Shown here piece by piece: positions 37,024-63,700 of a stretch of DNA of 64,000 bases; the first letter of the stretch is position 1; every line of letters starts with the position of its first letter. The notes under the pieces were generated by a model. It ran no database searches. It saw nothing but the letters and a program-made list of their open reading frames with translations, and was not told the origin of the DNA. A program made the position numbers and the translations under genes. Source of the stretch: an uncultured virus (IMG/VR IMGVR_UViG_3300013232_000195) (taxonomy: Duplodnaviria; Heunggongvirae; Uroviricota; Caudoviricetes); IMG/VR virus record IMGVR_UViG_3300013232_000195. One strand, 5' to 3'.

Positions 37024-37061
37024 TCACTTCTCCTTTACTCTGGGACTGGGACCCGAATGGC

Positions 37062-37250
37062 CTAGGCTTCTTGCACGTCGATGATCTTCAAGATGCCATC
37101 GCCTCCGCTGTTACCCATGTCGTTATCGCTGGCGCGGATCGTGGCGTCCACTTCGTCCCTGGCCTCGACGGTGAGCCATCGCAGCTCACCGTCATCGGCG
37201 ACGTAGCGGATCCGATAGGGCCTCAGCTTGTCAGTCTCCGAGGAGCTCAT
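37062..37250 (-). CDS. small hypothetical protein
   Basis: TAG stop abuts repeat. Confidence 0.6.
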   Translation of the reverse strand: MSSSETDKLRPYRIRYVADDGELRWLTVEARDEVDATIRASDNDMGNSGGDGILKIIDVQEA

Positions 37251-37620
37251 CGTTCTCTGCCTTCCAGCTAGGATCGGAGATGTTCTTTCCGACCTTCTCC
37301 AGTTCGACCACGAGGACGGTGATCTCCCGTGGCGTGACCCAGAGGAACAAGACTGAGACGGTTCCGTCCTTGCCGATGGCCTTTAGCTTCACGACCTTGG
37401 AGTAAGCTCCGCCGTTTCCGAGGGTTTTAGGCCCGTCGAAGACACGGAAGTTAGCTCCTTGCTCCAGGGCTCGCGTGAGTTGATCCACGGAGGCGAAGTG
37501 AGTGAACATGAGGCCCGCGAGGTATGGCCCAGCGAATTCGGCGACCCTCTGGCTGGCGACGTCATCGGACTCTGGGGGAACCATGTAGCGGGCAGTGGGG
37601 ATCAGGTTGTCTCTAATCAT
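37231..37620 (-). CDS. hypothetical protein
   Basis: GAGGTG RBS. Confidence 0.6.
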   Translation of the reverse strand: MIRDNLIPTARYMVPPESDDVASQRVAEFAGPYLAGLMFTHFASVDQLTRALEQGANFRVFDGPKTLGNGGAYSKVVKLKAIGKDGTVSVLFLWVTPREITVLVVELEKVGKNISDPSWKAENDELLGD

Positions 37621-37984
37621 TGGCCACCTCTTCATCGTTGACCTCTCCGGCAAAGGAGAAGGACCCATTCGTTCCCCTGTTGTAAGCGGCGTTTTTGCCG
37701 TTTTCTAGGGGGAAGAGCAAGGATTCGTTTGTTTCGTGGGCGAAGGTTCTGGTTCCGTCCATGGGGCCGCCTTGGAGGACCACGATGTTACCATCGGAGT
37801 AGACCTCCTTGAATACGTAGCGTTCGCCGTTGGCTCGTACGTATACGTGATGCTTGCCCGTCGGCATTTTACTCTCGCCTTCACCGACGACCTCGTTGAT
37901 GACGATTTCGGAGTCTTCTTCGTCGGCGGTTGCGGAGGCTCCATCGAGTCTGCCACCGATGAGAATTACGCGTTTCGAGTTCAT
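37613..37984 (-). CDS. hypothetical protein with internal duplication (GGxxDG x2)
   Basis: LIGGRLDG / LQGGPMDG; AAGGAG RBS. Confidence 0.65.
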   Translation of the reverse strand: MNSKRVILIGGRLDGASATADEEDSEIVINEVVGEGESKMPTGKHHVYVRANGERYVFKEVYSDGNIVVLQGGPMDGTRTFAHETNESLLFPLENGKNAAYNRGTNGSFSFAGEVNDEEVAND

Positions 37985-38012
37985 GGTGTGATCTCCTTGA
38001 TGTTTCTATAGC

Positions 38013-38642
38013 CTACCCCGCTTTCTTGCCGACTTCTCGGCTGTAGATTCGGTGGGCCGTCATTCCTCGGACCTCACGGAGACCCAGTTCCTTCTCAATC
38101 TGGTAGAAGGCCATCCCCTTCTTCCTCAGGGAGACGACTTTCTTCCTCAGCGCCGTCGGGGCGTTCTTTGCGGTGAAGCCCTCCTTGGGTTCAAGCTTGA
38201 CAAGCTCTTCGGCATCGTCCTTGGCGAGGATGATTTCCTCTTCCTCGGTCTCGGTTTCTTGCGCATGCTCCTCAGTGACCCGGGTCGCGATGACGGACAA
38301 GATCTTGTTGAGGTCGATATCCGCGATCTCGCGGTTCAAGGCCTCGACTTCGATGACGCGGCGCCACATGCCCATGGTGATGTTGCCCTGGTAGATCTCG
38401 TCGGAGCGGAACTTGATCTGCTTGTGGATCTTCTCGGCTGGCACGAACTTGCCTTGGATGTTGATCTTCCCAGTGGGCTTGACGAGAGGGCTCTTCAGAG
38501 CAAGGAGAGCGCCTCGGACTTGTTCGTTGTCCATTTCAAGGGCTTTGTCGACGAGAGTACTTAGTTGCTCGTCGAGACCTTTCTCCTTGAAGCTGGATTC
38601 CATTTCCAACGTTAGTTGCTGAACGACCTCTGACCTATCCAT
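38013..38642 (-). CDS. hypothetical protein with C-terminal HTH-like segment
   Basis: LRKKGMAFYQIEKELG; AAAGGA RBS. Confidence 0.65.
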   Translation of the reverse strand: MDRSEVVQQLTLEMESSFKEKGLDEQLSTLVDKALEMDNEQVRGALLALKSPLVKPTGKINIQGKFVPAEKIHKQIKFRSDEIYQGNITMGMWRRVIEVEALNREIADIDLNKILSVIATRVTEEHAQETETEEEEIILAKDDAEELVKLEPKEGFTAKNAPTALRKKVVSLRKKGMAFYQIEKELGLREVRGMTAHRIYSREVGKKAG

Positions 38643-38811
38643 TTTTTCCGTCCTTTCAATGCCCCCCGTAGGGGTACTCCATGGTTTGCCCGACCTTGTA
38701 CTCTAGACCATTGCTAGAGTTCTAGTCATATCCTCGGACCCGATCGGTCCCATGTCTTGTTAGGGTAATGCGTGGGTAATGCGCGGGTAGGATGCCTTAC
38801 GGCGGGAGATG

Positions 38812-38900
38812 AGACCTCTGGCGGGTTCGAACCACCGTCTCCAGGCGATCTTCGGGTATTCCCTAGAGCCTGGCGTCCTAGGCCACTAGACGAAGAGGTC
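38812..38900 (-). tRNA. tRNA-like gene with 16-nt insertion in anticodon loop (CUA if spliced at 37/38)
   Basis: GACCTCT/AGAGGTC acceptor, GTCTAGTGGCCTAGGAC D-arm, CCAGG/CCTGG anticodon stem with 23-nt loop, GGTGG-TTCGAAC-CCGCC T-arm; no encoded CCA. Confidence 0.75.
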
Positions 38901-39017
38901 TAAAAGTGACGGGGAATCTCTTGCGAGATTCCCCGTCTTGTATTTCCTCGGACTTCCCGCTGGATGTCGGAGGCGTTTCGTAGCGGAACGAATCAAGGGT
39001 TCGACGCTTGTCGGCGT

Positions 39018-39407
39018 TTAGACCTCGACGGGCTCCGCTTTCTGAACCTCGACGGGTTCGGCCTTCGGAACCTTTGCGGCGGCTCGGCGTTTCGCGGCGA
39101 GAAGCCGTTTTCCATCGTTTCGGGCGTTCCAGAAGTTCATGCCGTTCCGCCACTTACAGTGGAGGATGCATTCGCCGATGCGATCAGGGACGTTGCCTTT
39201 GGAGTAGAGGAGGTGAGCGAGGACGCGGTCGTTGGGGGTGAGCCAGCGTTTCTTGGAACCGTTCTTGCTGGCGCTGGTTCGGGACCAGCCCTTGCGTTCG
39301 TTGAAGTTATCGCGGGCACGGCGACGAAGATGTTCGTCGGTGATTGCGGCGATGACTTCCAGGACTTCCTCACGACTCGGGCGGGGGTATTTCTTGGACT
39401 TCGACAT
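39018..39407 (-). CDS. basic hypothetical protein
   Basis: AAAGGA RBS. Confidence 0.6.
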   Translation of the reverse strand: MSKSKKYPRPSREEVLEVIAAITDEHLRRRARDNFNERKGWSRTSASKNGSKKRWLTPNDRVLAHLLYSKGNVPDRIGECILHCKWRNGMNFWNARNDGKRLLAAKRRAAAKVPKAEPVEVQKAEPVEV

Positions 39408-39569
39408 GGCAGTTTCCTTTCGTTTTGAGTCCTCTCTAGGACTCCGTTGTACGACTGTTTTCGATCTTGTCTCCACAAGGAGACCTTTTACATCGGGGGC
39501 CTGCCACAGTCCCCAGCGCCCCGAAGTCTCTCGCCTCCCCGAGAGGACTCCCTAGCGCCTTGCTAGGGA

Positions 39570-39645: not shown

Positions 39646-40056
39646 CTAATCGTCCATGAAATTCTTCACGCTTCCGAACAGCATGGAGATGGGGGCCATG
39701 CACAACCAGAGGACACCGACTATGGCCAAGAGGGGAATTGTGATCGGCCAGAAGGGAGGCAGAGCGAGGATCATTGCCACCCCGACCAATCCACCCTTGA
39801 TGATCTTCCCGCCTCCGCCACCCGAACCGCAAGAAATTCCGCTGAAGCACCGTCCAACAATCCAGATGCAGAACAAGAATCCACCGACCCCTAGGACGAT
39901 TTCCCAGCAAGTCAAGGCGATGAAGCAGACGATGGACAAGGGGGCAGTGAGGGCCGCGAGTCCAGTGGGTTCGTTGGTAGTCCAGCTACGACCCAGAACC
40001 TTGCAACTCCAGACGAAGGCTAGGATTGAAGCGAGTACGCCAAGTGAAGTCAGCAT
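39646..40056 (-). CDS. membrane protein
   Basis: Multiple hydrophobic helices; RBS after repeat. Confidence 0.7.
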   Translation of the reverse strand: MLTSLGVLASILAFVWSCKVLGRSWTTNEPTGLAALTAPLSIVCFIALTCWEIVLGVGGFLFCIWIVGRCFSGISCGSGGGGGKIIKGGLVGVAMILALPPFWPITIPLLAIVGVLWLCMAPISMLFGSVKNFMDD

Positions 40057-40098
40057 TTTGACGTCTCCTTTCAATCCTAGTCTGGGACCCGATCGGCC

Positions 40099-40341
40099 CT
40101 AGTGTCCAGTGTAGAAGGGCTTGTCCTTGGTCAACTCGACGACATTGCCCTCGGGAATACGATCAGCCCGCCTTGACCCGTCAATGACGAAGTTGGTGAT
40201 GCCGAACTTGCGTTCGATGTAGTCCTCGGCGATGGCTTTGGCCGCTTCGGCATCTTTGGCCTTGACGAAGACGACCTTGGTCTCGTTCTTGTTGCGAGGG
40301 AGCTTGATCCAGGTAACGCGGAACTCGGTCAGGTCGAACAT
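40099..40341 (-). CDS. hypothetical protein
   Basis: AAGGAG RBS. Confidence 0.65.
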   Translation of the reverse strand: MFDLTEFRVTWIKLPRNKNETKVVFVKAKDAEAAKAIAEDYIERKFGITNFVIDGSRRADRIPEGNVVELTKDKPFYTGH

Positions 40342-40404
40342 TGTCTTTCTCCTTGGCGCGAAGTTAAGGGCCTCGTAGCGCCAATTGGGCCTCATGTCAT
40401 GTCG

Positions 40405-40674
40405 CTAGCGTTCTAGCGACTCCAAGTATTCCTCTGCCTCGTCGAAGAACATCTCCTTGCGCCCGATCCTTACTTTCGCCAGGCCGTGGCAATCCAAGTG
40501 ATCGCGAACTTCATCCACATCGGTCTTGAACTTGGCGGGCCAGTTGAGGGAATCAAGATCAACTTTGTTGTTCTCGTCGGTGAAGAACATGTGTTGGAGC
40601 GTCCTGGCGAGACGGACGAGGGAACGTTTGGACATCTTCGCCGGATCGACCAGTTTCATCTTGGGCGGCTTCAT
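40405..40674 (-). CDS. hypothetical protein
   Basis: RBS after repeat. Confidence 0.65.
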   Translation of the reverse strand: MKPPKMKLVDPAKMSKRSLVRLARTLQHMFFTDENNKVDLDSLNWPAKFKTDVDEVRDHLDCHGLAKVRIGRKEMFFDEAEEYLESLER

Positions 40675-40716
40675 GAAATCTGTCTCCTTTGAAGATTGCC
40701 TAGGACCCGATCGGTC

Positions 40717-41181: not shown

Positions 41182-41222
41182 GTTTCAAGTCTCCTTTAAG
41201 GGTTGTCTGGGACCCGAATGGC

Positions 41223-41576
41223 CTAGCATTTCTTCTTGCAATGTTGGCAATCGCACGGTTTGTTGTAAGAGCGATGATTGGCATTCTCATGCCAATGCTT
41301 CTTGTAGAAGGTGAGGTAAGGGGGCATGTCACCCTTGACGACGAAGTACTTGAGAGCAACCGCGATGTAGTACTCTTGCTTGGTGAGGGGGAACCCTCCC
41401 ATGATGCGAATGGCGATGTCTGTGAAGAAGTCTTGCGTCTTGGGGAATTGCTTGGGAGCAAGGTCGTCCATGTGACCACGCTCGGCCCGTTCGACGACAT
41501 GGGCGAAGTCGGTCTCCTTGACCTTCTTGCCCCAGTAGTTCATCAACTTGCGTTCGTCAGACAGTTTGGGCTTCAT
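41223..41576 (-). CDS. hypothetical protein
   Basis: TAGGAG RBS. Confidence 0.65.
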   Translation of the reverse strand: MKPKLSDERKLMNYWGKKVKETDFAHVVERAERGHMDDLAPKQFPKTQDFFTDIAIRIMGGFPLTKQEYYIAVALKYFVVKGDMPPYLTFYKKHWHENANHRSYNKPCDCQHCKKKC

Positions 41577-41891: not shown

Positions 41892-41939
41892 TTTGTATCC
41901 TCCTAGATCAAGTCTGGGACCCGATCGGGCCAGTCGGCG

Positions 41940-43004: not shown

Positions 43005-43053
43005 CTCGTGTTCTCCTCTGGAGGATGTCTGGGACCCGATCGGTCTCACAACC

Positions 43054-43488: not shown

Positions 43489-43533
43489 GTTTTCCTCTCC
43501 TTTGAATGTGGTCTGGGACCCGATCGGTCGGCG

Positions 43534-44646: not shown

Positions 44647-44698
44647 TGGTCTCTCCCTCGTGAATTGGCTGGGACCCGAATGGACGTGGGGTATGGCA

Positions 44699-44965: not shown

Positions 44966-45023
44966 TGGTTGCCTCCTTGCGTACTGGCTGGGACCCGATT
45001 GGTCGCAAGGAGATGGCACCAGA

Positions 45024-45885: not shown

Positions 45886-45927
45886 GGCATCCTCTCTTTC
45901 TTTGCTTAGGATCGGACCCGATCGCTC

Positions 45928-46467: not shown

Positions 46468-46514
46468 GTCAGTCCTCCCTTTCTCCACTTGGTCTGGGAC
46501 CCAAATGGTCGGCG

Positions 46515-47502: not shown

Positions 47503-47545
47503 TCGTTGATCTCCTTTATTTTGGTCTGGGACCCGAATGGACTGG

Positions 47546-47809: not shown

Positions 47810-47876
47810 TGGTATTCTCCTTTACCTTTGTCTGGGACCCGAATGGGCGGGCTAAGATGGCACGGCTAGAGGACGG

Positions 47877-48541: not shown

Positions 48542-48779
48542 GGGTGTCCTCCCTTTCATTTAGGGCTGGGACCCGATCGGTTTCGTTCCAGCCAATAGTC
48601 ATTCATCATGTTGTGTAAGTCAAGAGTGGCTTGCATCCATCCTCATCTCCGTTTTGGCCTCGCCCTCTCCCATTTCGTCAATATCTCGAAGAAGGACATT
48701 GTACTCCTTGTAGAGGAGCGACATGAGTTTTAGACGTGTGCCCGGGGACAACCGATCTACCAATTCTTGAGCTTCCATG

Positions 48780-49115: not shown

Positions 49116-49153
49116 TGGGTTTCTCCTTACTCTATGTCTGGGACCCAATCGGC

Positions 49154-49300
49154 CTACATGATCTTGAAGTGGACCAGCAGCTTGTACACGACGAACGCAA
49201 TCCCAGCGAGGACAAGCAAGACGACGATGCCCCAGGCGATGAAAGCCCCAAAGATGAAGCTTTGCATCTTCTTGAAGCTCTTGTCGAAGTCGTTGTTCAT
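49154..49300 (-). CDS. small membrane protein (48 aa)
   Basis: AAGGAG RBS; MNNDFDKSFKKMQSFIFGAFIAWGIVVLLVLAGIAFVVYKLL. Confidence 0.6.
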   Translation of the reverse strand: MNNDFDKSFKKMQSFIFGAFIAWGIVVLLVLAGIAFVVYKLLVHFKIM

Positions 49301-49783: not shown

Positions 49784-49953
49784 TGGTTATCTCCTTGCCC
49801 TAGGTCTGGGACCCGAATGGTCATCATGGGCCAAGGAGCGGACGTCGCATCGTGCCTCGGGAGCCCGCATCCGCCCCTTGGATTGTCCATGACTAGCCCC
49901 GTTTCTCGCCGCTGGCCCTTTGCGCTCGGGCCTACGGCCACCGTGGGCAACCT

Positions 49954-50304: not shown

Positions 50305-50508
50305 TCATTCGTTTGTTGTCTGGGACCCGATCGGTCGGCGTTCCCACTCCTCCTTGTCCGTCTTAGAGAATGTCTTGCAGATGAGTATCTCATCGTGCAA
50401 TGTCTGGAAGGGCATGAACCCTTGCCGATCCAGGAAGATGAGGAACCTCGGGATATCGGACGGCGTTATGGTCAGGTAAACAGCCATGTCGGGCGCTGTC
50501 AGCCTCAT
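50305..50508 (-). CDS. hypothetical protein (reads through a repeat copy)
   Basis: ATGA overlap; ends ...ERRPIGSQTTNE. Confidence 0.5.
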   Translation of the reverse strand: MRLTAPDMAVYLTITPSDIPRFLIFLDRQGFMPFQTLHDEILICKTFSKTDKEEWERRPIGSQTTNE

Positions 50509-51029: not shown

Positions 51030-51066
51030 TGCTGTCCTCCCGCCTTGAACTAGGACCCAATTGACC

Positions 51067-51771: not shown

Positions 51772-51895
51772 GTTCAATCCTCCCTTTAATGTTAGTCTGG
51801 GACCCGATCGGGCGCAAGGGCGAACTAGGATGGCACGGATCTTTTGCGGCGGTACGTCCGCTTGCCTGGGACCCAAATGCCCGACCTCATTGCAC

Positions 51896-52962: not shown

Positions 52963-53265
52963 CTACCGTCTGGGACCCGAATGGTTCAACATCGTTAGAA
53001 CAACCAACGGAAGGAAGGCACCAGGATCTCCGCCCTCGCTCTTGATCGGCTTGCGCCACCAGGTTCCTTGGATCTGGAACAAGGCGACCTTGTTTCCGTC
53101 CTTCATCACGAACACCGTCTTGCCGTTAACCCGTTCCTTGCCAATGACTTCGGAGTCGTGTGGTTCGTCGCCGATGACGTACCGAACGTCGTCGCCCTTG
53201 CGGGGTTCCTCACCCCGCAAGCGCGTCCAACAATCGTGGGTCTTGAGGAGTTCCTTGCTAACCAT
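52963..53265 (-). CDS. hypothetical protein
   Basis: Overlap-coupled; reads through a repeat copy. Confidence 0.6.
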   Translation of the reverse strand: MVSKELLKTHDCWTRLRGEEPRKGDDVRYVIGDEPHDSEVIGKERVNGKTVFVMKDGNKVALFQIQGTWWRKPIKSEGGDPGAFLPLVVLTMLNHSGPRR

Positions 53266-53503: not shown

Positions 53504-53541
53504 GTCAACCTCCCTTTCTAATGGTCTGGGACCCGAATGGC

Positions 53542-53826
53542 CTACTCGCCTTCGGGAAGAGGTTCTTCGTCCTCAAAATCCTCGTCAAAGTCGGGTTCTT
53601 TGGGGAAGCAGTCGTCACAAATCTGACTGATGAACATCTCTCGGTCCTTGGCGGGCATGAGCGGGAAGGCGTCTTGAATGAACGCCCCATTCTCTCTGGC
53701 CTTGATTCCCACGATAGGAGCCTTGATCTCAACGGTCTTGCGACAACTCACACACATGATCTCGACGATGACGTTTTTGTCGTCACCAGGAATGGCCTTG
53801 AAAGACATCGGTCTGGTCAGAAACAT
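53542..53826 (-). CDS. hypothetical protein
   Basis: C..C, IQDAFP, RE.FIS.IC..C motifs. Confidence 0.65.
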   Translation of the reverse strand: MFLTRPMSFKAIPGDDKNVIVEIMCVSCRKTVEIKAPIVGIKARENGAFIQDAFPLMPAKDREMFISQICDDCFPKEPDFDEDFEDEEPLPEGE

Positions 53827-53850
53827 GTTTGATCCTCCCTTTCACTTGGT

Positions 53851-54243
53851 CTAGGACCCGATCGCCACGCCTTCTCGCACCGCCCGCAGCGTCATGGGTT
53901 GCCACCTAGACATGTCGGCGCTTTCCCCGATGCAGATGGGGTCGATATGGTCATTAACCTCGTTGGCGAACTGGTCGGCGGTCACGTCCACGATGATCGT
54001 CCCAACGCGAACCCACCAATGGAACGGATACTTGGCGTCCTCGGGGTCGGCGTCTTCGTCGTACTGCGACATGTCGGGGTCGTCCAGAACAAACCTCCCC
54101 CGAACAACGCGACACTTGCCACCGTCCTCGCGGATCATGTTGGCGATGTACTTGGACGCCTTAAGGCATCCGCCCTGGGGAGGATTGCCGTACTTCCGAA
54201 CGATGAACTCACGCGCCTTCTTCGCAATCGCCTGTAGGTTCAT
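53851..54243 (-). CDS. hypothetical protein (GGC...HWW...D.TADQF, possible Cys-His-Asp fold)
   Basis: Stop lies inside repeat. Confidence 0.65.
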   Translation of the reverse strand: MNLQAIAKKAREFIVRKYGNPPQGGCLKASKYIANMIREDGGKCRVVRGRFVLDDPDMSQYDEDADPEDAKYPFHWWVRVGTIIVDVTADQFANEVNDHIDPICIGESADMSRWQPMTLRAVREGVAIGS

Positions 54244-54815: not shown

Positions 54816-54860
54816 TGTCCTTGTCCTCCCTTTCAAGGATAGGCTAGGACCCGATCGCCC

Positions 54861-55333: not shown

Positions 55334-55500
55334 TCTCTTGCCCTCCAAAATGGTCTGGGACCCAAATGGCCCTTAGATATATCCGAAGCACCTCAAAATA
55401 CACAGGACGGCAACCACGGCAAAGAGGAGTTCCTTAAGGTCCACGCTGAATGTAATCTTTTTTTCGATTCTCTTTACCTTGAAGATGAACATGGCATCTC

Positions 55501-55854: not shown

Positions 55855-55893
55855 TGTCTTTCCTCCCTTTGTCATGGACTGGGACCCGATCGG

Positions 55894-56550
55894 TCATGTG
55901 TCTTTGTCCCCTCGCCGCGCCTTGGCGGCGTACTTGTCTCGTTGTTTTTCCATCTTCTTGGTTTCGGGATGGTTCGGATTCTGCTCAACCCAAAGGTCGT
56001 GATAGGCTGTCCACCAGTTCCAGATTTCCTTCCCCTTTCGCCAAACGCTACGGATGCCATGAACACACCAGCAAATCTGCTCACCCTTTATGTCAGCATT
56101 CGTGACGGCGCAGAAATCAGAGAGGTCGGATCCGAAGTCGTCCAAGCTTGAAATCTTGTACCTCTTGCGAGCAGACTGATACTTCTTCCCAGACATGCAG
56201 AACTTCTTGCTCTCATTGGAAACGATCTCGTCACCAACTCGGATGATCTGCTTGAGTCGGTAATCCAGAAGGTCAGTGAAATCAAGGTCTTCCAGAAACC
56301 GATCACTCTCCAGTAGCTTGGCTTCGCATTCGGCCAAGGTCAGCGGGCATTCGGATGCCGCCTTTTTCACGCTGGCTTGGAACTTTTCCTGGCTCTCGGA
56401 CATGATGGCATTGAGGAAATCCGATCCAACCATGTGGTGGTCTCTGAAAACCTGGTAGAGTATAGCGACATGTACCTCGAGCTTGTCGGCGGCAGCTTGC
56501 CAACGCAACTTGCTCCGAATGCTTTTGGGAACGTATGGTTGAGTCTTCAT
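55894..56550 (-). CDS. hypothetical protein
   Basis: Repeat-flanked, more AT-rich. Confidence 0.7.
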   Translation of the reverse strand: MKTQPYVPKSIRSKLRWQAAADKLEVHVAILYQVFRDHHMVGSDFLNAIMSESQEKFQASVKKAASECPLTLAECEAKLLESDRFLEDLDFTDLLDYRLKQIIRVGDEIVSNESKKFCMSGKKYQSARKRYKISSLDDFGSDLSDFCAVTNADIKGEQICWCVHGIRSVWRKGKEIWNWWTAYHDLWVEQNPNHPETKKMEKQRDKYAAKARRGDKDT

Positions 56551-56584
56551 GTAGATCCCCTTTTATAAATGGTCTGGGACCCAA

Positions 56585-56854
56585 TTAGCCCCAGATCTCC
56601 TTGACCACCTTCGCAGGGGCTTCCATGAGTGTCGTGACAGTAATCTCGCCAAGCTGCTGGCCGTAGAAGTTGGGCTTCCCATTCCTTAAAGGGACCTTGA
56701 TGACCTTACCCTTCTCAAGGACCACGGGGACGCAAGGATTGTATGCGTGTTGCCCGATCTCGAAAGCCTGCCCATCCCGGGCGACCAGGACGTATCCTCG
56801 CAAGCCAAACCCATTGGTGTTGCTGGATGCCGCCACGACCTTGAACTCTTTCAT
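56585..56854 (-). CDS. hypothetical protein
   Basis: SSNTNGFGL motif; repeat-flanked. Confidence 0.65.
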   Translation of the reverse strand: MKEFKVVAASSNTNGFGLRGYVLVARDGQAFEIGQHAYNPCVPVVLEKGKVIKVPLRNGKPNFYGQQLGEITVTTLMEAPAKVVKEIWG

Positions 56855-56886
56855 CGTTGTTCCTCCCCCAATGGTCTGGGACCCAA

Positions 56887-57123
56887 TCAACCTCGGCAAG
56901 GGGCGAACTCGTCCGCCGCCTTGAGGTAGCCCTCAATCTCGTCGAAGCTACCAGACACAAGGATCGTCACTCCGTCGTTCTGGATGACCATGCGGGGAGG
57001 TTCTCGACTCTCGTCCACCCTCAGAACCAAGTCGTTCTTGACTGCACGGGCCTTGAGACGTTCCCAACGGATGATCGTCCGTTCAAGGTCGGAGAGAGGC
57101 GGCAAAACGCTATTCTTGCTCAT
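56887..57123 (-). CDS. hypothetical protein
   Basis: GGAGG RBS. Confidence 0.55.
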   Translation of the reverse strand: MSKNSVLPPLSDLERTIIRWERLKARAVKNDLVLRVDESREPPRMVIQNDGVTILVSGSFDEIEGYLKAADEFAPCRG

Positions 57124-57382: not shown

Positions 57383-57419
57383 GGTCTGTCCTCCAAGGAT
57401 CGTCTGGGACCCAAATGGA

Positions 57420-57791
57420 CTAGGCCAATTCGTCAATCTTCTTCTGCGCCCACTGTTGGGCGTCAATCCAGTAGTCCTTGCCGTTCTTGACCACGACAGC
57501 CCCACCGCCGAACTCGTCCAGACGGGGCTTGCTGCAAGTATGCGCCCATGAGAAGGTGATGGCGTCCGTCAGCTTGAAACAGTTCTGGAACTCACACAGA
57601 ACATCGACGATCCGTTCCAAGTCCGCGTTCTCTTCGCTATTGAGCCAAACCGTTTTGTTGTCTTCCTGGATCTCAGCATCACAACTCGGGCCGAACTCAC
57701 CGTCCTTGTTGAGTTCCTCAGCAAGCCATGTGGCTTGCTCCTCTGTGGCGCATTCAATCTGCGTACTGAACTGAGTGTAGTTGTTCGCCAT
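57420..57791 (-). CDS. hypothetical protein
   Basis: MANNYTQFS, WA.TCSKPRLDEFGGGA motif. Confidence 0.7.
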   Translation of the reverse strand: MANNYTQFSTQIECATEEQATWLAEELNKDGEFGPSCDAEIQEDNKTVWLNSEENADLERIVDVLCEFQNCFKLTDAITFSWAHTCSKPRLDEFGGGAVVVKNGKDYWIDAQQWAQKKIDELA

Positions 57792-57828
57792 TCAAATCTC
57801 CTTTGTCTTGGTCTGGGACCCGAACATC

Positions 57829-58644
57829 CTAGTACCGCATGGCACGTAGCCGCTTTGCCCGATCCTCCTTCGCCGTCCCCCATGCCTCCTTGGTCATGTC
57901 ACCACCATACCCAGAAGCGCGGTCAGCATCGTCACGATACTCGTCCGATCCCCACAACCGCCCACCAGTCCCTCGCGTCCAGTTCACGTTGCGTAGCGCC
58001 CTCCAGAACACCCGCGCCATCGGTTCCTCATGCGCCCGATCAACCGCGTGATTGTTCTCGGACACCACCCACGTCACCACCCGCTTGTCGGCGTTAAGGT
58101 AGATGTTTCCCTCGTACCCCACGCGGAAGCTGACTGTGGCCTTGGTTGCCTTGGGGAAGTCCTTCTTCTTCGGCGCTTTTGGCCGCTTGCGGTCTGTCCA
58201 CTGGTTGCCCCAGATCTTGCCTTCGGCGTCTACGCGACGGCCCATGCCGTTGTAGCATGTTCGGTTCTTCTCGGTCACCCACGCCTCAACCCCAGTCGTG
58301 GGAGGGCAAGTATTGCCCATCACCACTTCCCTCTTGTCTTGCATGAGGGCATGGCGAACAACGTCAGACTCCAGCTTGAACCTCTCACAAAGAATCGACA
58401 AGAGCGTCCGAATTCCATCGGGACTGGTCGGCGTAAGGTTGCAGCAATGAGTCGCCAGCAACGCCTTGACCTCGGCCTTGGCGTTGTTCTTGAGAAGCCG
58501 ATCCATCTCGGTCTTGACCTTCAGGGTGTCGGCGTACCGCTTCTCTTGCAACTCGTTGTAGCCAGCTATCACGGCATCCCGCAGCTTGCGGAACTCGGCG
58601 CAAGACAAATGCCATTCGCCCTTTTCCCATTCATTGCAACTCAT
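57829..58644 (-). CDS. hypothetical protein
   Basis: Repeat-flanked 271 aa. Confidence 0.72.
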   Translation of the reverse strand: MSCNEWEKGEWHLSCAEFRKLRDAVIAGYNELQEKRYADTLKVKTEMDRLLKNNAKAEVKALLATHCCNLTPTSPDGIRTLLSILCERFKLESDVVRHALMQDKREVVMGNTCPPTTGVEAWVTEKNRTCYNGMGRRVDAEGKIWGNQWTDRKRPKAPKKKDFPKATKATVSFRVGYEGNIYLNADKRVVTWVVSENNHAVDRAHEEPMARVFWRALRNVNWTRGTGGRLWGSDEYRDDADRASGYGGDMTKEAWGTAKEDRAKRLRAMRY

Positions 58645-58691
58645 GCTTGTCTTCCTCCAAAAATGGTCTGGGACCCGATCGTGTGGTTATG

Positions 58692-59336: not shown

Positions 59337-59378
59337 TTTCGTATCCTCCCTTTCCCCTAGTCTGGGACCCGAATGGCT

Positions 59379-59753
59379 CTAGTCTTGTCCGCATGTCCTC
59401 AAGACTTCAAGGACGCGGCCCCAGACCAGCATGGTGTCTGGCTTCCAGTTGTACCATTTCTTGTCGTACGTCCACCAGTACCCGCCATGATCCAAGTCGG
59501 GGTTTTTCGCCTTCTCGTTTCCCTTGAGACTTCTCGCCGTCAAGTCAATGTCGAAGGTCACAGTTGACGTGTTCTTGCGGTTCCACTCCAGACGCAAGTT
59601 GCTGTAACAGCCTTGCGTACCATTCGTGACGAGCGACACCATGACGCAGTTGTCGGGCTTGCCGAAGACGAAGTACTGTCCAGAACGAGCGCCATGCCCC
59701 ATCAAAAGAGCGCCCAGTTCCTTTTCAATCATCTCGTTAATGGTCATCTTCAT
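59379..59753 (-). CDS. hypothetical protein
   Basis: Repeat-flanked. Confidence 0.65.
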   Translation of the reverse strand: MKMTINEMIEKELGALLMGHGARSGQYFVFGKPDNCVMVSLVTNGTQGCYSNLRLEWNRKNTSTVTFDIDLTARSLKGNEKAKNPDLDHGGYWWTYDKKWYNWKPDTMLVWGRVLEVLRTCGQD

Positions 59754-59783
59754 GTCCTCCCTTTCCAATAGTCTGGGACCCAA

Positions 59784-60026
59784 CTAGGCGCGGATCATCG
59801 CACGGGCTTCCTCGTCCCGCGCTTGCGCCTCAGTGATGTAGTAGAAGTTCACCATCGGATCGGACCATGCGGGAGCGCCCAGGTCTTCCACGATCCCCAC
59901 CGTCCGCTTCTCGTTCAGCGCCTTGTTGCAGGCGAGAACCAAGGCGAAGTCAAGGGACGGGCAATGCCGTCCTTCCACCGAGTACTTGACGCCTTCTCCC
60001 TTGTTCATCCGCAGGAACAATGACAT
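59784..60026 (-). CDS. hypothetical protein
   Basis: GGGAGG RBS. Confidence 0.6.
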   Translation of the reverse strand: MSLFLRMNKGEGVKYSVEGRHCPSLDFALVLACNKALNEKRTVGIVEDLGAPAWSDPMVNFYYITEAQARDEEARAMIRA

Positions 60027-60036: not shown

Positions 60037-60336
60037 CTATCCGTAGACCGTTTTTCTGGCGGTCTTCCAAACCAACTTGGCTTTCTCAGTGTTTAGCCAG
60101 TCATTCCTCGCAAAGTAAGGTACCAGTTTGTACCTATGATCCCCAAAAACTAGGCTGGCATGATGTGGCCCGTTTCTGTCTTCAAACATCATGACTATTA
60201 GGTCTGAAACTCCCTTAAGACGATAATGCCATTCTTTCCACTTCTCCATTGGCGGGAACTCGGAGAACTCAGCGATCTCCCGCATGATGCAACCAAGCAG
60301 CTTTACAAGCGCTGGCTCAAGTAATTCAGAGTCCAT
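60037..60336 (-). CDS. hypothetical protein
   Basis: GGGAGG RBS after repeat. Confidence 0.6.
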   Translation of the reverse strand: MDSELLEPALVKLLGCIMREIAEFSEFPPMEKWKEWHYRLKGVSDLIVMMFEDRNGPHHASLVFGDHRYKLVPYFARNDWLNTEKAKLVWKTARKTVYG

Positions 60337-60355
60337 TGATTCCTCCCACCATAAC

Positions 60356-60583
60356 CTAGGACCCGATCGACCTACGCTTCTGGTCCGCAATCATGGCGTC
60401 CATCAAAAGGCGGAACTTGTGGATCATCTCACATATCGTTATTGCGCCAGCGTCCAGACCACTGTTGGCTTGCTTCTCAGCCGCCTTGACAGCCGTCTGG
60501 AACATGACGAAATCCCCACCTCCGTCCTCGCCAGTGAACACATCGACAATGCGGTCAACGTCTGGTTTCAGTTTGATCTTCAT
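60356..60583 (-). CDS. hypothetical protein
   Basis: ATGA overlap; stop inside repeat. Confidence 0.55.
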   Translation of the reverse strand: MKIKLKPDVDRIVDVFTGEDGGGDFVMFQTAVKAAEKQANSGLDAGAITICEMIHKFRLLMDAMIADQKRRSIGS

Positions 60584-60990
60584 GCGGCCACCTTCATTCG
60601 CCTAGACGATGCCTTCGCCTCTGTCTTCTTGGCAACGTCCCGCCGCGCCAGACTAGCGGCAGCGCCCACCGCGTTAATGACCACCAGTAGCCCCAGACAC
60701 CCTATGGCTATCGCTTGAATGCCGCTGAGGATCATCGTCCCCTCCAGCAGCATGACGAACCCCAGCGACTTGGGTTTGTTCTGGAAGGCGGCTTGCGCCC
60801 ACTCGTACACGGTCGGCGCGGAAACCAGCAACCCGCCAAGGACAATCGTCCAGAGCCAAGGCTGGCCCTTGCTCGCCTCATAGTGGGAAACGAGGTACGT
60901 CGCCACGGGGACGGTAGCCCCGAAAAGGCAACCAACCCATGCCGCCAACGGATTCTTCCAAGCCTCACGAATCTGCCGAAGAACTGTCAT
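60580..60990 (-). CDS. membrane protein
   Basis: About four hydrophobic helices; RBS after repeat. Confidence 0.7.
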   Translation of the reverse strand: MTVLRQIREAWKNPLAAWVGCLFGATVPVATYLVSHYEASKGQPWLWTIVLGGLLVSAPTVYEWAQAAFQNKPKSLGFVMLLEGTMILSGIQAIAIGCLGLLVVINAVGAAASLARRDVAKKTEAKASSRRMKVAA

Positions 60991-61039
60991 CTCCCTATCC
61001 TCCCTTTTGGCCCAGTCATAGCCTGGGACCCGATCGATG

Positions 61040-61310: not shown

Positions 61311-61385
61311 TGGAAGCATCGGTGGGAGTCGAACCCACTTAAACCCGCTTTGCAGGCGGGTACCTGGCCGTCCAGTCCCAATGCT
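61311..61385 (-). tRNA. tRNA-Cys(GCA)
   Basis: AGCATTG/CGATGCT acceptor, U73+CCA, CCCGC-CTGCAAA-GCGGG, GTGGG-TTCGACT-CCCAC; atypical short D-arm. Confidence 0.85.
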
Positions 61386-61410
61386 TCAACATCCAACGTC
61401 TAGGACCCAA

Positions 61411-61596
61411 TCAGCCCTTGATCTCCTCGGTCTTCCAGTGGGTACGCTCCTCCGTACTCTCAAACTCGTCGTCGATCTCCTCGCCCATGCCGTCCGTCTG
61501 GATCGCCTCAATGGCGAGTTCCTCGTTCTTCGCCTCCACCTCGTAGGTGGTGAAGTAAATGCGCTTCTCTTGGAACTTCACTCTGAACTTGGGCAT
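61411..61596 (-). CDS. small hypothetical protein (VEA-motif family)
   Basis: MPKF.V...YEVEAKNEELAI. Confidence 0.6.
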   Translation of the reverse strand: MPKFRVKFQEKRIYFTTYEVEAKNEELAIEAIQTDGMGEEIDDEFESTEERTHWKTEEIKG

Positions 61597-61877: not shown

Positions 61878-62093
61878 TCACTCCATCGCATTCATGGCTT
61901 CGGTAAGCTCGGTCAACGGAACAACACGACAAAAATCATCGCCTTTGTTATGCTCAATGACGTGTTTTGACCCGATTGGATGACGGGCGACTTCCTTCAG
62001 GTTAGACACTAGGGGCTTGTCCCCAGTGGCGTCAATGACCATGATTACTCGACAACGCAGCCCTTGTAGCTCAAGTCTTCCAATCGCATACAT
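61878..62093 (-). CDS. hypothetical protein
   Basis: GGGAGG RBS after repeat. Confidence 0.55.
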   Translation of the reverse strand: MYAIGRLELQGLRCRVIMVIDATGDKPLVSNLKEVARHPIGSKHVIEHNKGDDFCRVVPLTELTEAMNAME

Positions 62094-62142
62094 TCGTTAT
62101 TTCCTCCCCTTAAAGTCTAGGACCCGATCGTTCTGGCACGAA

Positions 62143-62187
62143 GGGAGGCCCTGGCGCGGAGGGAGAGCCGCGCCAGGGCAGGGAGAA
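62143..62187. repeat. 45-bp hairpin element, copy 2
   Basis: Near-identical to 58692-58736. Confidence 0.85.
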
Positions 62188-62272: not shown

Positions 62273-62560
62273 CTAGCCATTCTTCTCTTTCTCCTTGCGC
62301 TGTGCAAGCCGCTCCTCCATGGCCTTCTTGGCGGCGTCCCGTTCGACCTTGCGCATCGCGCAAGTCTTCATCAGAATCAACTCGGAGATGGAGATGGAGA
62401 TGCCGCATTCAACCTCTTGGGCGAGAAGCCGAAGCTCGACTTGGGTCGCGTTGTCGGTGATGACCTTGAGCCGAGCCATGAATTCCTGTTCGGCGGCGTG
62501 GATGTACTCCTGCGCCTCTAGGTTCAGGACACCGTATTCGTTGTAGGTCATCTTCAGCAT
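62273..62560 (-). CDS. hypothetical protein
   Basis: GGGAGG RBS after repeat. Confidence 0.6.
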   Translation of the reverse strand: MLKMTYNEYGVLNLEAQEYIHAAEQEFMARLKVITDNATQVELRLLAQEVECGISISISELILMKTCAMRKVERDAAKKAMEERLAQRKEKEKNG

Positions 62561-62594
62561 CGGCGCTTTCCTCCCCTCACCGTCTGGGACCCAA

Positions 62595-62729
62595 CTAGCC
62601 CTTGCGCTTCGGCGGCGGCAACTTGCCGTCTTCAATCAGTTTGTTCCAGGCAACCCGTTCCAGCATTTTGCCAATGTAGAAGCCAACGAAGAAATGCAGC
62701 GGACACGCGAGGATAAGTATTGTGAACAT
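62595..62729 (-). CDS. small membrane protein (44 aa)
   Basis: MFTILILACPLHFFVGFYIG...; TAG abuts repeat. Confidence 0.5.
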   Translation of the reverse strand: MFTILILACPLHFFVGFYIGKMLERVAWNKLIEDGKLPPPKRKG

Positions 62730-62734
62730 CGGCG

Positions 62735-62938
62735 TTAGTATCCTCCCGTTAACTCGACCATGTAGACCGAGTCATTGTTGTCGCGTTGCGTCTTGAACGT
62801 CACGCCTTCCCGAACGAGCTGCGAGATGAACACAGCCATCAGCTTCACGCCTTCTTCTGTCATGCTGAACAACACTTCCTTTTCCTTCACGGGGCACCGC
62901 GCCGGATAACTCAGGTTCTCTCCAAGCTTCGTATTCAT
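62735..62938 (-). CDS. hypothetical protein
   Basis: L.REGVTF...TGGY; RBS after repeat. Confidence 0.6.
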   Translation of the reverse strand: MNTKLGENLSYPARCPVKEKEVLFSMTEEGVKLMAVFISQLVREGVTFKTQRDNNDSVYMVELTGGY

Positions 62939-62974
62939 TCTCTTGTCCTCCCTTTCCAACAGTCTGGGACCCAA

Positions 62975-63238
62975 TCAGCCTTCCTCGCGGCATTCCTCGG
63001 ACGCCCGCGCAAGGTCCAGCCGCTTCCCGTTCTCGGTCGCGATGTCGTCGAAAACCGTGAGGATCGGCGTTCCGTACTCGACCTCTAGCACGATCGGCGT
63101 CCCGAAACCGTTCACCGAGTTGGCGTCCCCGAACCCCTTCGGGCGAATCAAGAGGGCGCCAGTCGATGCCATCTCGACCGTCACTTCCAGGTCGGGGCCA
63201 CCCTTGTTGTCCTTCACCTTGAATGTCGCTGATTCCAT
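62975..63238 (-). CDS. hypothetical protein
   Basis: Repeat-flanked, GGGAGG RBS. Confidence 0.65.
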   Translation of the reverse strand: MESATFKVKDNKGGPDLEVTVEMASTGALLIRPKGFGDANSVNGFGTPIVLEVEYGTPILTVFDDIATENGKRLDLARASEECREEG

Positions 63239-63285
63239 TGGCGTTTTCCTCCCTTTCCCATTGACTAGGACCCGATCGGTCGGCG

Positions 63286-63630
63286 TTAGGCCTTGCGCTC
63301 GCAAAAGAAGTCCAGCTTCTTCATGATCAAGGAAGCGACTTCGGGATAGAAGTCGGGATGAGCGGCGTTTGTGGACAAGAAGTCCAAGACCGTCCCCGCG
63401 CTCATATACTCCGAACCATGCGCCCCGAAACGGACGCAAACATGCGCCTGGTTGACGCCGATGTCCCCCTCGTGGATATACACGTCCACGGGATCAAACT
63501 CCAGCTTGTTCCGAACGAGGACCGATCCGATGTACTCGCTTTCCTTATGCCCACAACCGTCAGGCCAAGCCCGCTTGGGCAACTCCTCGATATACGCATC
63601 GAACCTGGCATGGGTCATTCGCATTCGCAT
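63286..63630 (-). CDS. hypothetical protein
   Basis: Repeat-flanked, GGGAGG RBS. Confidence 0.65.
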   Translation of the reverse strand: MRMRMTHARFDAYIEELPKRAWPDGCGHKESEYIGSVLVRNKLEFDPVDVYIHEGDIGVNQAHVCVRFGAHGSEYMSAGTVLDFLSTNAAHPDFYPEVASLIMKKLDFFCERKA

Positions 63631-63700
63631 CGTCTGTCCTCCCCTTACCAGTCTGGGACCCGAACGGGGCGGGAATGACCCGCCCCGTTCGGAACTCCCC

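Follow-up and report, generated by a model that had tools for sequence, protein, structure and literature searches.

A co-oriented 19-base element precedes non-coupled genes in a phage of about 200 kb and is a candidate gene-expression signal

Introduction

Cluster A stoperator sites occur in both arms. The PeSLs of T4-like phages are regulatory cassettes built on sigma70-like promoters, at which genes are gained and lost, and cluster K phages have start-associated sequences (SAS). Stoperators are described in PMC9283540 as more than 20 asymmetric sites that lie in short gaps between genes and are oriented according to the direction of transcription.

Here we describe a repeated element in a 64-kb window (the whole stretch of DNA analyzed) from an uncultivated phage whose genome spans at least 197 kb (~200 kb). 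Its layout agrees with that description of stoperators. The original prediction held that the motif was unlike the named analogues, and this is borne out in that the element differs from SAS in both consensus and position and, unlike PeSLs, is not built on sigma70-like promoters, although relatives of this phage likewise gain or lose genes at the elements. The best explanation is that the element acts in cis as a gene-expression signal at the start of each independently expressed unit.

Results and Discussion

An exact search for TYGGGTCCYAG on both strands of the window recovered 41 copies, compared with 0.16 ± 0.39 in 100 shuffles, none of which reached 41. Forty of these cores are on the - strand, from 37046-37056 to 63653-63663, and one is on the + strand at 33340-33350; a PWM scan detected three more copies on the - strand, all degenerate (core starts 45921, 38743, and 32711), along with a chance-level hit at 17691, shuffled windows yielding 0 to 3 hits. 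The 42 copies originally counted between 37046 and 63664 thus correspond to 40 exact and 2 degenerate copies within that span, and the spacing of about 600 bp given for them is close to the measured median of 572 nt (mean, 682; range, 69 to 3036). Also as predicted, all 40 exact cores in the array are co-oriented with its - strand genes, exact searching finds no copy in 1-32 kb, and the array reaches the window edge. The full element, G.CC(GA/AT)TYGGGTCCYAGAC, is a 19-base signal of ~28 bits (28.4 bits over positions -6 to +14, contiguous) with a conserved block of 19 to 21 nt and a G+C-rich core lacking an A+T-rich melting box. The GC content of the units had been called varying, but its standard deviation (0.027) equals that of equal-sized windows in the + block. 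The copies and associated features are as follows.

63651..63669 (-), element; core 63663-63653; then gene 63286-63630; GC hairpin directly upstream
63263..63281 (-), element, T variant; then gene 62975-63238
62962..62980 (-), element; core adjoined by upstream TGA; then gene 62735-62938
62582..62600 (-), element; core adjoined by upstream TAG; then gene 62273-62560
62115..62133 (-), element, T variant; then gene 61878-62093
61398..61416 (-), element; then tRNA-Cys(GCA) 61311-61385 (-)
61021..61039 (-), element; then gene 60580-60990 (32 nt)
60354..60372 (-), element, T variant; core TAG in frame of upstream ORF; then gene 60037-60336
59771..59789 (-), element; then gene 59379-59753
59360..59378 (-), element; then gene 58737-59336
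58666..58684 (-), element; then gene 57829-58644; replacement in a relative begins exactly at core edge 58678
57811..57829 (-), element; TGCCAT box at -21; then gene 57420-57791
57402..57420 (-), element; then gene 57110-57382
56874..56892 (-), element; then gene 56585-56854
56572..56590 (-), element; then ORF 55894-56550
55877..55895 (-), element; then gene 55501-55854
55353..55371 (-), element; then gene 55064-55333
54842..54860 (-), element, T variant; then gene 54342-54815; L143 ortholog also has a copy
53849..53867 (-), element, T variant; core TAG ends gene 53851-54243; then gene 53542-53826
53524..53542 (-), element; then gene 53258-53503
52968..52986 (-), element; then gene 52510-52947; joint at 52984 in a relative
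51864..51882 (-), element, "empty" unit; next copy 69 nt downstream, no gene between
51795..51813 (-), element; TGCCAT box at -28; then DUF7227 gene 51067-51771
51048..51066 (-), element, T variant; 8-bp stem with wobble pairs; then methyltransferase-like gene 50505-51029
50318..50336 (-), element; next strong start 72 nt off, gene 49954-50247
49804..49822 (-), element; then gene 49310-49783
49136..49154 (-), element; then gene 48780-49115
48564..48582 (-), element; then gene 48311-48541; copy kept in a relative without gene 48620-48778
47830..47848 (-), element; TGCCAT box at -20; then gene 47546-47809
47524..47542 (-), element; TGCCAT box at -20; then DNA methyltransferase gene 46894-47502
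46492..46510 (-), element; then gene 46153-46467
45909..45927 (-), degenerate element; PWM 13.3 bits; then SD and gene 45511-45885
44986..45004 (-), element; TGCCAT box at -20; then gene 44699-44965
44667..44685 (-), element; TGCCAT box at -19; then HhH glycosylase-like gene 44083-44646
43511..43529 (-), element; then gene 43054-43488
43027..43045 (-), element; then ATP-dependent DNA ligase gene 41940-43004
41912..41930 (-), element; then gene 41586-41891
41205..41223 (-), element; then gene 40717-41181
40698..40716 (-), element, T variant; perfect 9-bp stem; then gene 40405-40674
40080..40098 (-), element; then gene 39646-40056
38731..38749 (-), degenerate element; PWM 16.5 bits; downstream of intron-bearing tRNA(CUA)
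37044..37062 (-), last array element; then genes 36694-37023 and 36287-36697, terminator 36241-36271
36241..36271 (+), terminator, 13-bp stem; - strand array meets + strand operon 33415-36191
33334..33352 (+), sole + strand element; ahead of + strand operon, ATG 33415
32699..32717 (-), degenerate element; PWM 22.9 bits; in non-coding hub
32170..33410 (no strand), non-coding hub between divergent blocks

The order of features in the short gaps is stop codon, element, 7 to 9 nt, strong SD, and ATG, matching the layout first proposed. In 36 of 40 copies the start codon lies 18 to 28 nt past the core, and the distance from core end to ATG has a median of 23 nt (standard deviation, 2.5). The upstream stop codon ends 0 to 10 nt ahead of the core in 24 of 40 copies and is the core's own TAG in 4 further copies, and several upstream genes draw their last codons or stop from the unit. 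An element is found ≤60 nt upstream of 37 of the 62 strictly called array genes (~60%), where the median upstream gap is 45 nt with the element versus 9 nt without it, and 18 of the 25 gaps without it are ≤13 nt. Array genes without an element are coupled to the preceding gene, and nearly all non-coupled junctions of the 27-kb array contain the element. One copy is followed, 14 nt past its core, by tRNA-Cys(GCA) in place of an SD and ATG, which indicates that the element is not tied to translation, and the two cores of the "empty" unit have no gene between them.

Some copies carry a second box: TGCCAT is present 18 to 21 nt before the core in 10 of the 51 copies listed (6 in the window, 3 of 3 in the relative L135, and 1 in the distant relative L143), with ~0.1 expected by an estimate from the background rate, while separate inspection of L143 found the box in 3 of 6 copies. 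The geometry is TGCCAT-N16-GGGTCC with an unconserved spacer, and ~80% of copies are without the box.

The six copies in L143 are co-oriented within 3.8 kb and have an invariant GATCGGGTCC..., variable positions +8 to +10, and AC at +11/+12. Upstream of gene 54342-54815 and its L143 ortholog (50% amino acid identity) only GATCGGGTCCTA and the SD are conserved, and the element appears to be under purifying selection. Relatives differ from the window by whole genes at the elements. In L135, a single unit stands in place of the two that flank gene 47546-47809 in the window, and this unit is a chimera of those two, with a crossover inside the shared unit that can be placed anywhere in ~45 nt of shared sequence and across which identity to the window jumps from 68% to 88%. 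An X2 contig has the same 308-nt skip. This indel is exactly one gene (47546-47809) plus one unit, a whole-gene difference at the repeat of the kind that the integron-like model of the original prediction called for; a relative joins 52984 to 53570, and the genes between those two copies are absent. Some indels instead end at ordinary gene boundaries that carry no element (43743 to 44121, and the methyltransferase stop codon in L135). Altogether, 23 of 36 listed joint endpoints (10 of 16 for well-supported joints) are ≤35 nt from a core against a background of 12.9% that was drawn from random positions, while an element precedes ~60% of called gene starts; the excess at elements is not above that of gene boundaries in general, and joints with short sides may be alignment artifacts of the repeat itself. 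The indel at gene 47546-47809 fits homologous exchange between regulatory cassettes, as with PeSLs, better than site-specific capture. A search of 185,579 species genomes gave 37 hits at chance level, each to a single core and unaccompanied by a protein match.

Signals of other kinds are distributed differently. The hub contains sigma70-like promoters, five GCCAT boxes, and a strong terminator (32999-32970, - strand), with no ORF of coding-like codon use, and consensus-like sigma70 sites are concentrated in the hub region at 33-36 kb. Between 44 and 64 kb the array has 1 sigma70-like site (shuffles, 6.7 ± 2.8), and its coding strand has 1 terminator-like site; because internal sigma70-like sites are so scarce, the array would need some non-sigma70 signal. 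The + block, from which the element is absent, has its own sigma70-like promoter class (GTGCC-N8-TG(G/C)TA...T), with six strict matches, all on the + strand and each preceded by TTGA-like letters, ahead of genes 6402, 8364, 12355, 13807, 15666, and 17143. Read by eye, the -10 hexamers of this class end 16 to 44 nt (median, ~20) ahead of the start codon, and the AGAC of the element ends at the same distance.

Our tentative preference is to regard the element as a promoter read by a phage-specific factor encoded outside the window, a reading ranked first here that was absent from the three models of the original prediction, two of which, the operator and the RNA signal, are live rivals. Several observations argue for a promoter: the element's place at non-coupled junctions, the tRNA-Cys copy, the scarcity of sigma70-like sites in the array, the different promoter class at the same start codon distance in the + block, the bipartite box geometry, the retention of core and SD alone before the L143 ortholog, the high contiguous information (as in operators or dedicated-polymerase promoters), and the cassette behavior of the units in relatives. 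Each element would start a unit of 1 to 4 genes or a tRNA, and the block as a whole may be a hyperplastic set of small non-structural genes. The factor could be an RNA polymerase of the phage itself, or else a sigma factor or activator; GGGTCC would be a -10-like box, and the optional TGCCAT 16 bp upstream would be a -35-like or activator box, with transcription perhaps starting near the conserved A at +14, so that the leader would be minimal, its first bases immediately preceding the SD. The recurring unit of ~20 to 45 nt (box, core, and SD), ~570 nt apart in one orientation, could then serve as a homology patch, so that recombination between units would delete, insert, or swap whole genes among related phages in the manner of PeSL cassettes. 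Against a promoter are the lack of any RNA polymerase, sigma factor, activator, or repressor family match among all window proteins (64 of at least 197 kb), the G+C-rich core without a melting box, the rarity of the TGCCAT box, and an SD distance tighter than a promoter strictly requires. The + strand copy also weighs against it. A good sigma70-like promoter (33276-33304) precedes this copy, its -10 hexamer lying ~30 to 50 nt upstream, and a small hairpin with a T-run (33364-33377), an SD, and the ATG follow; an operator, roadblock, or leader-RNA site would explain the copy no less well than a second promoter.

Unlikely, but the strongest of the alternatives, is a stoperator-like operator, in which asymmetric sites would let a phage immunity repressor or shut-off factor block elongating host polymerase along an array transcribed from a few promoters past the window edge. 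Internal sigma70-like promoters are lacking, as would be the case in a long arm served by one promoter; the + strand copy is oriented with transcription, the information content is high and contiguous, and the fixed-phase TGCCAT box could be a second protein contact. However, the window contains neither a repressor nor an integrase nor anything else that points to lysogeny, and there is no prophage-like multi-copy match among the species genomes; the sites are absent from the + block, unlike the both-arm pattern of cluster A, and neither the near-constant SD distance nor the tRNA copy has an obvious reason.

We consider it rather improbable that the element is an RNA-level cleavage or binding site (a small hairpin plus CCAGAC) in a long polycistronic transcript, yielding or marking separate mRNAs or controlling the SD 7 to 9 nt downstream. 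In favor of such a signal, the SD and start codon follow the element at tightly constrained distances, there are no terminators between units, and the + strand copy would be in a transcribed leader if its sigma70-like promoter is real. The hairpin originally noted in many copies is perfect over 9 bp at 40699-40721, its inner 4 pairs (GACC/GGTC) form in 77 to 100% of 44 copies, and 31 of 40 copies have a purine at position -5 that would form an A-U or G-U pair. The stem shows no covariation above chance, however (94 of 500 shuffles attain the observed score), appears in the MFE fold of 19 of 40 copies, and is of marginal stability (mean MFE, -6.3 versus -4.8 kcal/mol shuffled), and the most conserved letters, +7 to +12, are unpaired. 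Further, a tRNA gene is also served, an upstream box at a fixed distance across an unconserved spacer is more typical of a DNA site, and an Rfam search matched tRNAs and no other family.

An integron-like site, at which a dedicated recombinase captures and shuffles gene cassettes, is very improbable. The co-oriented array in which each unit of small unrelated ORFans has its one site, the whole-unit differences among relatives, the "empty" unit, and the upstream genes ending within units would all suit it, but the short conserved block has no long imperfect inverted repeat and at most a 4-bp stem that shows no covariation, GC is homogeneous, and no integrase or recombinase family match was found among all window proteins, in keeping with the original prediction; the fixed SD relation and the conservation before the L143 ortholog point to expression, the documented crossover could be anywhere in its shared tract, as in homologous exchange, and some indels end at boundaries without an element. 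Least probable of all is another one-strand DNA mark unrelated to expression, such as site-specific nicks or a Chi-type recombination hot-spot, which would account for the strict strand asymmetry and many copies but gives no reason for a position 18 to 28 nt before start codons and solely in non-coupled gaps.

The degenerate hub copy at 32699..32717 has two GCCATCC boxes before it, one of them at -20, and a 9-bp hairpin takes one of its arms from the 3' half of this copy.

Sequence and placement of the element

The core TYGGGTCCYAG is matched 41 times in the window, where 0.16 matches are expected; 40 of these copies lie on the - strand from 37046 to 63663, in the block of small genes that we refer to as the array, and the single + strand copy is at 33340. 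A weight matrix built from the 40 array copies recovered three further degenerate - strand copies (45921, 38743, and 32711), and its scan of 1 to 32 kb gave no credible copy. When the copies are aligned on the core, a block from -6 to +12 is conserved as G.CC(GA/AT)T(C/T)GGGTCC(C/T)AGAC, and the element has a conserved length of 19 to 21 nt; position +14 is A in 27 of 40 copies, purine-rich SD letters follow at +20 to +26, and the information content over -6 to +14 is 28.4 bits. Neighboring copies are spaced by a median of 572 nt, and the array holds 40 of them per 27 kb.

All copies are found between - strand ORFs, in gaps or at the 3' edge of an ORF, and orientation is without exception: 40 of 40 array copies point with their own genes, and the lone + strand copy is co-oriented with the + strand operon. 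A start codon with an SD follows the core at 18 to 28 nt in 36 of the 40 copies, the exceptions being one copy with a tRNA-Cys gene (61311 to 61385) directly after it in place of an SD and ATG gene, one "empty" unit in which the next copy is only 69 nt away, and two longer gaps. On the other side, the upstream stop codon ends 0 to 10 nt ahead of the core in 24 of 40 copies, and in four copies of the T variant the core itself supplies a TAG in the reading frame of the preceding ORF. Under strict gene calling, a copy lies no more than 60 nt upstream of 37 of the 62 array genes, and intergenic gaps have a median length of 45 nt with a copy versus 9 nt without one. Since 18 of the 25 copy-less gaps measure at most 13 nt, the genes there are coupled to the preceding gene; copies thus head the non-coupled genes, and the element marks units of one to four genes. 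We conclude that it is a cis signal of gene expression that opens each unit.

Two minor groupings are visible among the copies. Those at 62140 to 62165 and 58690 to 58715 (-) share an additional upstream stretch of ∼21 nt, CCCTCCGCGCCAGGGCCTCCC, that could fold, and TAACGCCGACC stands immediately 5' of the core in a subfamily comprising window copies 63275, 46504, and 43523 and two copies of L135, a related metagenome locus, with near-matches at window copies 50330 and 41924.

Promoter-like classes and an upstream box

We rank first, while stopping short of calling it probable, the reading that the element would be a phage-specific promoter. Four lines of evidence place it there: the element heads a tRNA gene as well as protein genes, host-type promoters are lacking in the array while the other gene block has its own promoter class at an equal distance from start codons, a second box occurs at promoter-like spacing, and the core is conserved across deep divergence.

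The array from 44 to 64 kb contains one sigma70-like site, compared to 6.7 ± 2.8 in shuffled sequences, and one terminator-like site on its coding strand; sigma70-type -35/-10 hexamers are also absent from the element itself. The + block, the + strand genes of 1 to 31 kb, carries another conserved signal, GTGCC-N8-TG(G/C)TA...T with TTGA-like letters ahead of it, whose six strict matches are all on the + strand and all precede + strand genes. Their -10 hexamers, as read off the sequences, end 16 to 44 nt before the start codon (median, about 20), the same distance as that from the end of the array element to its start codons. Leaders of this class are predicted to be very short, with the SD almost at the RNA 5' end. 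Plain consensus-like sigma70 sites are found in a third place, the hub, which is the noncoding stretch between the divergent blocks. Taken together, the three classes suggest a temporal cascade, with the array as the class that would need a phage factor.

Promoter and terminator features
6361, 8326, 12313, 13741, 15627, 17095 (+): + block promoter class, strict pattern
33276-33304 (+): sigma70-like promoter of the hub, divergent from the next
33124-33097 (-): sigma70-like promoter of the hub
32999-32970 (-): hub terminator, 13-bp stem, roughly 100 nt downstream of the - promoter

The sequence TGCCAT begins 18 to 21 nt ahead of the core in 10 of 51 copies, where chance would give about 0.1 as estimated from the background rate. 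The box is carried by the hub copy and five array copies in the window, by each of the three L135 copies, and by one copy of L143, a more distant metagenome relative; a separate L143 comparison found the box in three of six copies. The other copies, in the window as in the relatives, show none. Because the spacer is not conserved, the composite reduces to TGCCAT-N16-GGGTCC, which is the spacing of a two-box promoter. Promoters of the sigma70-family type have two boxes about 16 to 18 bp apart with an unconserved spacer, and transcription from them begins some 7 nt past the -10 box; if GGGTCC acted as a -10-like box, the conserved A at +14 would fall 7 nt after it, a coincidence that is suggestive only. 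A sigma54 reading of GTGCCA boxes, made by eye, was dropped because neither strand nor spacing fits. In an unrelated viral contig of 44% G+C (L292, 5910 to 6003), a textbook sigma70-like promoter and an SD stand ahead of a homolog of array gene 54342-54815, at the place taken by the element in the window.

In phages that encode an RNA polymerase or sigma factor of their own, the promoters have a highly conserved contiguous block whose end is a few bases short of the presumed start; they are co-oriented with genes, lie in short gaps, and are accompanied by few terminators. The element differs from such promoter sets in a density far above what is usual for them, and no RNA polymerase or sigma gene was seen in the 64-kb window. 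If the element is a promoter, it would represent a new specificity and define a temporal class of about 40 transcription units, and it could guide a search of the full genome for its cognate factor. More broadly, for this uncultivated ∼200-kb phage it supplies a regulatory code that can be tested.

Operator and RNA-level readings

The second-ranked reading, a stoperator-like operator, is in our view doubtful. Stoperators of cluster A mycobacteriophages are 13-mers bound by the monomeric immunity repressor of a temperate phage (PMC9283540). They resemble the element in that more than 20 asymmetric sites occupy short intergenic spaces, all pointing in the direction of transcription, with a site next to a promoter (PMC9283540). 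The orientation rule and the lack of internal promoters in the array fit this reading, and so does the + strand copy, which follows closely on a sigma70-like promoter. Against it, the element has a 19-nt block, is confined to one gene block, and keeps a fixed distance to the SD, and no repressor or lysogeny gene was seen among the window proteins. Searches for a regulator that could read the element gave none, either with Pfam at E ≤ 1 on the hub-adjacent proteins or with NCBIfam on 86 proteins, and comparison of the first gene of the + operon with PDB sequences and the ESM Atlas likewise gave no regulator.

A site acting at the RNA level is unlikely. The tight spacing to the SD and a small stem speak for it: a GNCC/GGTC stem with a 5-nt loop can form, and its inner four pairs are standard in 77 to 100% of 44 copies. 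To this extent the stem of the original prediction is borne out, but nothing beyond four pairs is supported, and covariation is absent (94 of 500 shuffles equal the observed score); none is possible, since the 3' side of the stem is invariant. Windows of 28 nt around the element have a mean minimum free energy (MFE) of -6.3 versus -4.8 kcal/mol for shuffles, the stem is present in 19 of 40 MFE folds, and CCAGAC, the most conserved letters past the stem, is unpaired. Structure at the element is therefore possible but not supported, and sequence-specific recognition is supported. An RNA-level site would also leave the upstream TGCCAT box unexplained.

Start-associated sequences (SAS) of cluster K mycobacteriophages are another point of comparison. 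They are 13-bp repeats, GGGATAGGAGCCC, that contain the SD, stand 3 to 7 bp from the start codon, and number 11 to 19 copies; according to a 2025 paper, the function of SAS and ESAS still requires experimental verification (PMC3203893, PMC12699233). The likeness lies in an asymmetric repeat of one orientation just upstream of gene starts, restricted to the nonstructural half, with upstream stop codons sometimes inside it and a second upstream element in a subset. Our element differs from SAS in its sequence, in being separate from the SD and 18 to 28 nt from the start, in preceding a tRNA as well, and in its 40 copies in 27 kb.

Conservation in relatives

Of 54 loci from a metagenome scan, two are true relatives, L135 and L143. 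L135 (1670 bp) is 88% identical over the methyltransferase gene and has three co-oriented copies in the same layout as in the window. The distant relative L143 (3.8 kb) has six co-oriented copies of GATCGGGTCC, each followed by a variable triplet, AC, the SD, and ATG. The L143 ortholog of 54342-54815 has 50% amino acid identity, and alignment of the DNA ahead of the two genes shows conservation of GATCGGGTCCTA and the SD alone, which argues that selection acts on the core and that it is more than a repeat of recent spread. Two further loci (L153 and L157) each have two weak co-oriented matches and no homology to the window.

The specific element pattern had no match in IMG/VR, and a loose pattern gave at least 118 matches that were single and chance-like. 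No repeat was present in 80 IMG/VR loci recovered through the methyltransferase, which share no other array gene with the window except for one more in L224, or in three loci recovered through the 54342-54815 family. Species genomes gave 37 single matches, none with two cores or any window-protein match, and no prophage copy. Full-text literature searches with the 11-mers of the motif, and with a 9-mer plus "bacteriophage," returned no phage element among the matches listed.

The methyltransferase gene itself (46894-47502, -) belongs to PHROG 757 and forms a unit of its own behind an element. It is promiscuous, with 257 IMG/VR relatives and ∼66% nucleotide identity to genes of Prochlorococcus podoviruses, Pseudomonas Pf-like phages, and Burkholderia phages, and the element was not found with its relatives in named phages or in IMG/VR (80 loci examined).

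Gene gain and loss at units

In the window, two units flank the gene at 47546 to 47809, and L135 has a single unit at this place. That unit is chimeric: its left side matches the left window unit and its right side the right one, identity to the window changes across it from 68% to 88%, and the crossover falls within about 45 nt of shared sequence. Logan contigs of a DNA run (X2), which match the window at 80 to 95% identity, share the 308-nt skip of L135 and also show loss of the gene at 48620 to 48778 with a copy kept, loss of the genes between the copies at 53536 and 52980, and a replacement that begins exactly at the core edge at 58678.

Endpoints of such joints lie within 35 nt of a core in 23 of the 36 listed, versus a background of 12.9%, and in 10 of 16 for the well-supported joints; short-sided joints are possible artefacts of the repeat itself. 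Because ∼60% of called gene starts have a copy, this excess is not above that of gene-boundary breakpoints in general, and some indels lie away from any copy (43743 to 44121, and at the methyltransferase stop codon in L135). As to whether genes are gained and lost exactly at the repeat, unit-sized indels do occur at elements, yet others sit at plain gene boundaries and there is no excess over a gene-boundary null. The original prediction described units as varying in GC, which did not hold up, as the GC of units varies no more than it does elsewhere. No paralogs were found within the array.

A close parallel is provided by the PeSL and PmSL cassettes of T4-like phages (Arbiol 2010; Comeau 2014), which consist of sigma70-like -35/-10 boxes, or a Mot box and a -10, with a stem-loop upstream of the promoter in PeSLs, and in which recombination between tandem units accounts for indels of "gene plus one unit" (PMC4122927). 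Both are composite regulatory units ending in an SD and start codon, repeated between small ORFans of a hyperplastic region beside indels and swaps among close relatives. The differences are that the element has no sigma70-like promoter but a G+C-rich 19-mer, a stem of at most 4 bp, and a higher density of 40 copies in 27 kb, in a window without T4 core genes. Clear hairpins stand just upstream of only a few copies of the element (e.g., 63663); in most copies a stop codon lies 0 to 10 nt from the core. By analogy with PeSLs, the units may also act as homology patches for gene-sized exchange, whatever reads the element (PMC4122927). This would extend the PeSL idea, of repeated regulatory cassettes that double as joints for ORFan shuffling, beyond T4-like phages and sigma70-type promoters, and it bears on how large phages acquire and lose accessory genes. 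We do not consider this a new kind of system, and the mechanism proposed is one deduced from sequence.

A stronger version is a long shot: the element would be the working joint of a phage gene-cassette exchange in which circles of "gene plus element" are excised and inserted, through either a recombinase devoted to this task or the recombination enzymes of the phage with a preference for the element. The array would then be an integron-like platform of ORFans, each cassette with its own signal read by an undescribed polymerase or sigma factor, in a lineage without a cultured relative. Integron-like capture proper, despite the shared layout of co-oriented small unrelated ORFs with one site per unit and unit-sized differences among relatives, is very improbable, since attC sites are long imperfect inverted repeats that fold as a bulged hairpin and no such repeat is present, no recombinase or integrase family matched any of the 129 (Pfam, PHROGs) or 86 (NCBIfam) window proteins, and each unit here brings its own expression signal.

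Phage context and the hub

The window appears to belong to a large phage of at least 197 kb. Family searches of its proteins identified a tail-tube-like protein, which is carried by a 196,989-bp contig, a ligase, an HNH protein, a macro-domain protein, three DNA methyltransferase-like genes, and many ORFans; no T4 core genes were found among them with Pfam or PHROGs. Among 50,697 phage genomes there was no record like this phage apart from the one promiscuous methyltransferase gene. By ligase, the closest named phage is Tunturiibacter phage Tunturi_5 (308 kb, 29.6% identity), which has no copies of the motif.

The array ends at a strong terminator (36241 to 36271), where it meets a short + strand operon (33415 to 36191) whose + strand frames are coding-like by codon use, while the opposite frames are not. 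The noncoding hub (32170 to 33410, about 1.25 kb) combines sigma70-like promoters, a strong terminator, five GCCAT(C) boxes that are all in - orientation, and three copies of GTCGGCGTT in 32265 to 32400. Its - promoter and terminator could give a small RNA, and the region may be a control region or an origin.

Directly adjoining the hub is the gene of the HNH protein (31039 to 32106, -; 355 amino acids with an acidic N terminus), which has a weak match to the HNH part of an IscB model (E value of 7e-10, 38.5 bits versus a cutoff of 175) and probably encodes a plain HNH nuclease. At 29048 to 30972 (+) are CoaB-like and CoaC-like genes (phosphopantothenoylcysteine synthetase and decarboxylase), the second of them fused to a peptidase M23 domain, which is a strange pairing for a phage. 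The + block also encodes a macro-domain ADP-ribose hydrolase-like protein (10431 to 11066, +) and a GNAT acetyltransferase (4762 to 5313, +), for which counter-defense is a possible role.

TAG codons and amber-type tRNAs

Two tRNA genes with the anticodon CUA, of the amber-suppressor type, are present at 12603 to 12678 (+) and 38811 to 38900 (-). ARAGORN labels both tRNA-Pyl, and the second, whose anticodon loop holds a 16-nt intron, is detected only with introns allowed. In the array, TAG is the most frequent stop codon, used by 35 of 61 genes versus 14 of 43 in the + block, which suggests that other parts of the genome use stage-specific read-through or recoding of TAG. When 15.5 to 25.6 kb was read with TAG as Q, no clearly interrupted gene emerged. 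Four consecutive genes within 39646 to 41181 (-), namely, 40717-41181, 40405-40674, 40099-40341, and 39646-40056, share one frame and are parted only by TAG codons and by element-bearing gaps without TAA or TGA; they would fuse under amber suppression, and the arrangement may be due to chance. In 16 array genes ending in TAG, the frame stays open for at least 40 codons beyond the stop, which chance could also produce.
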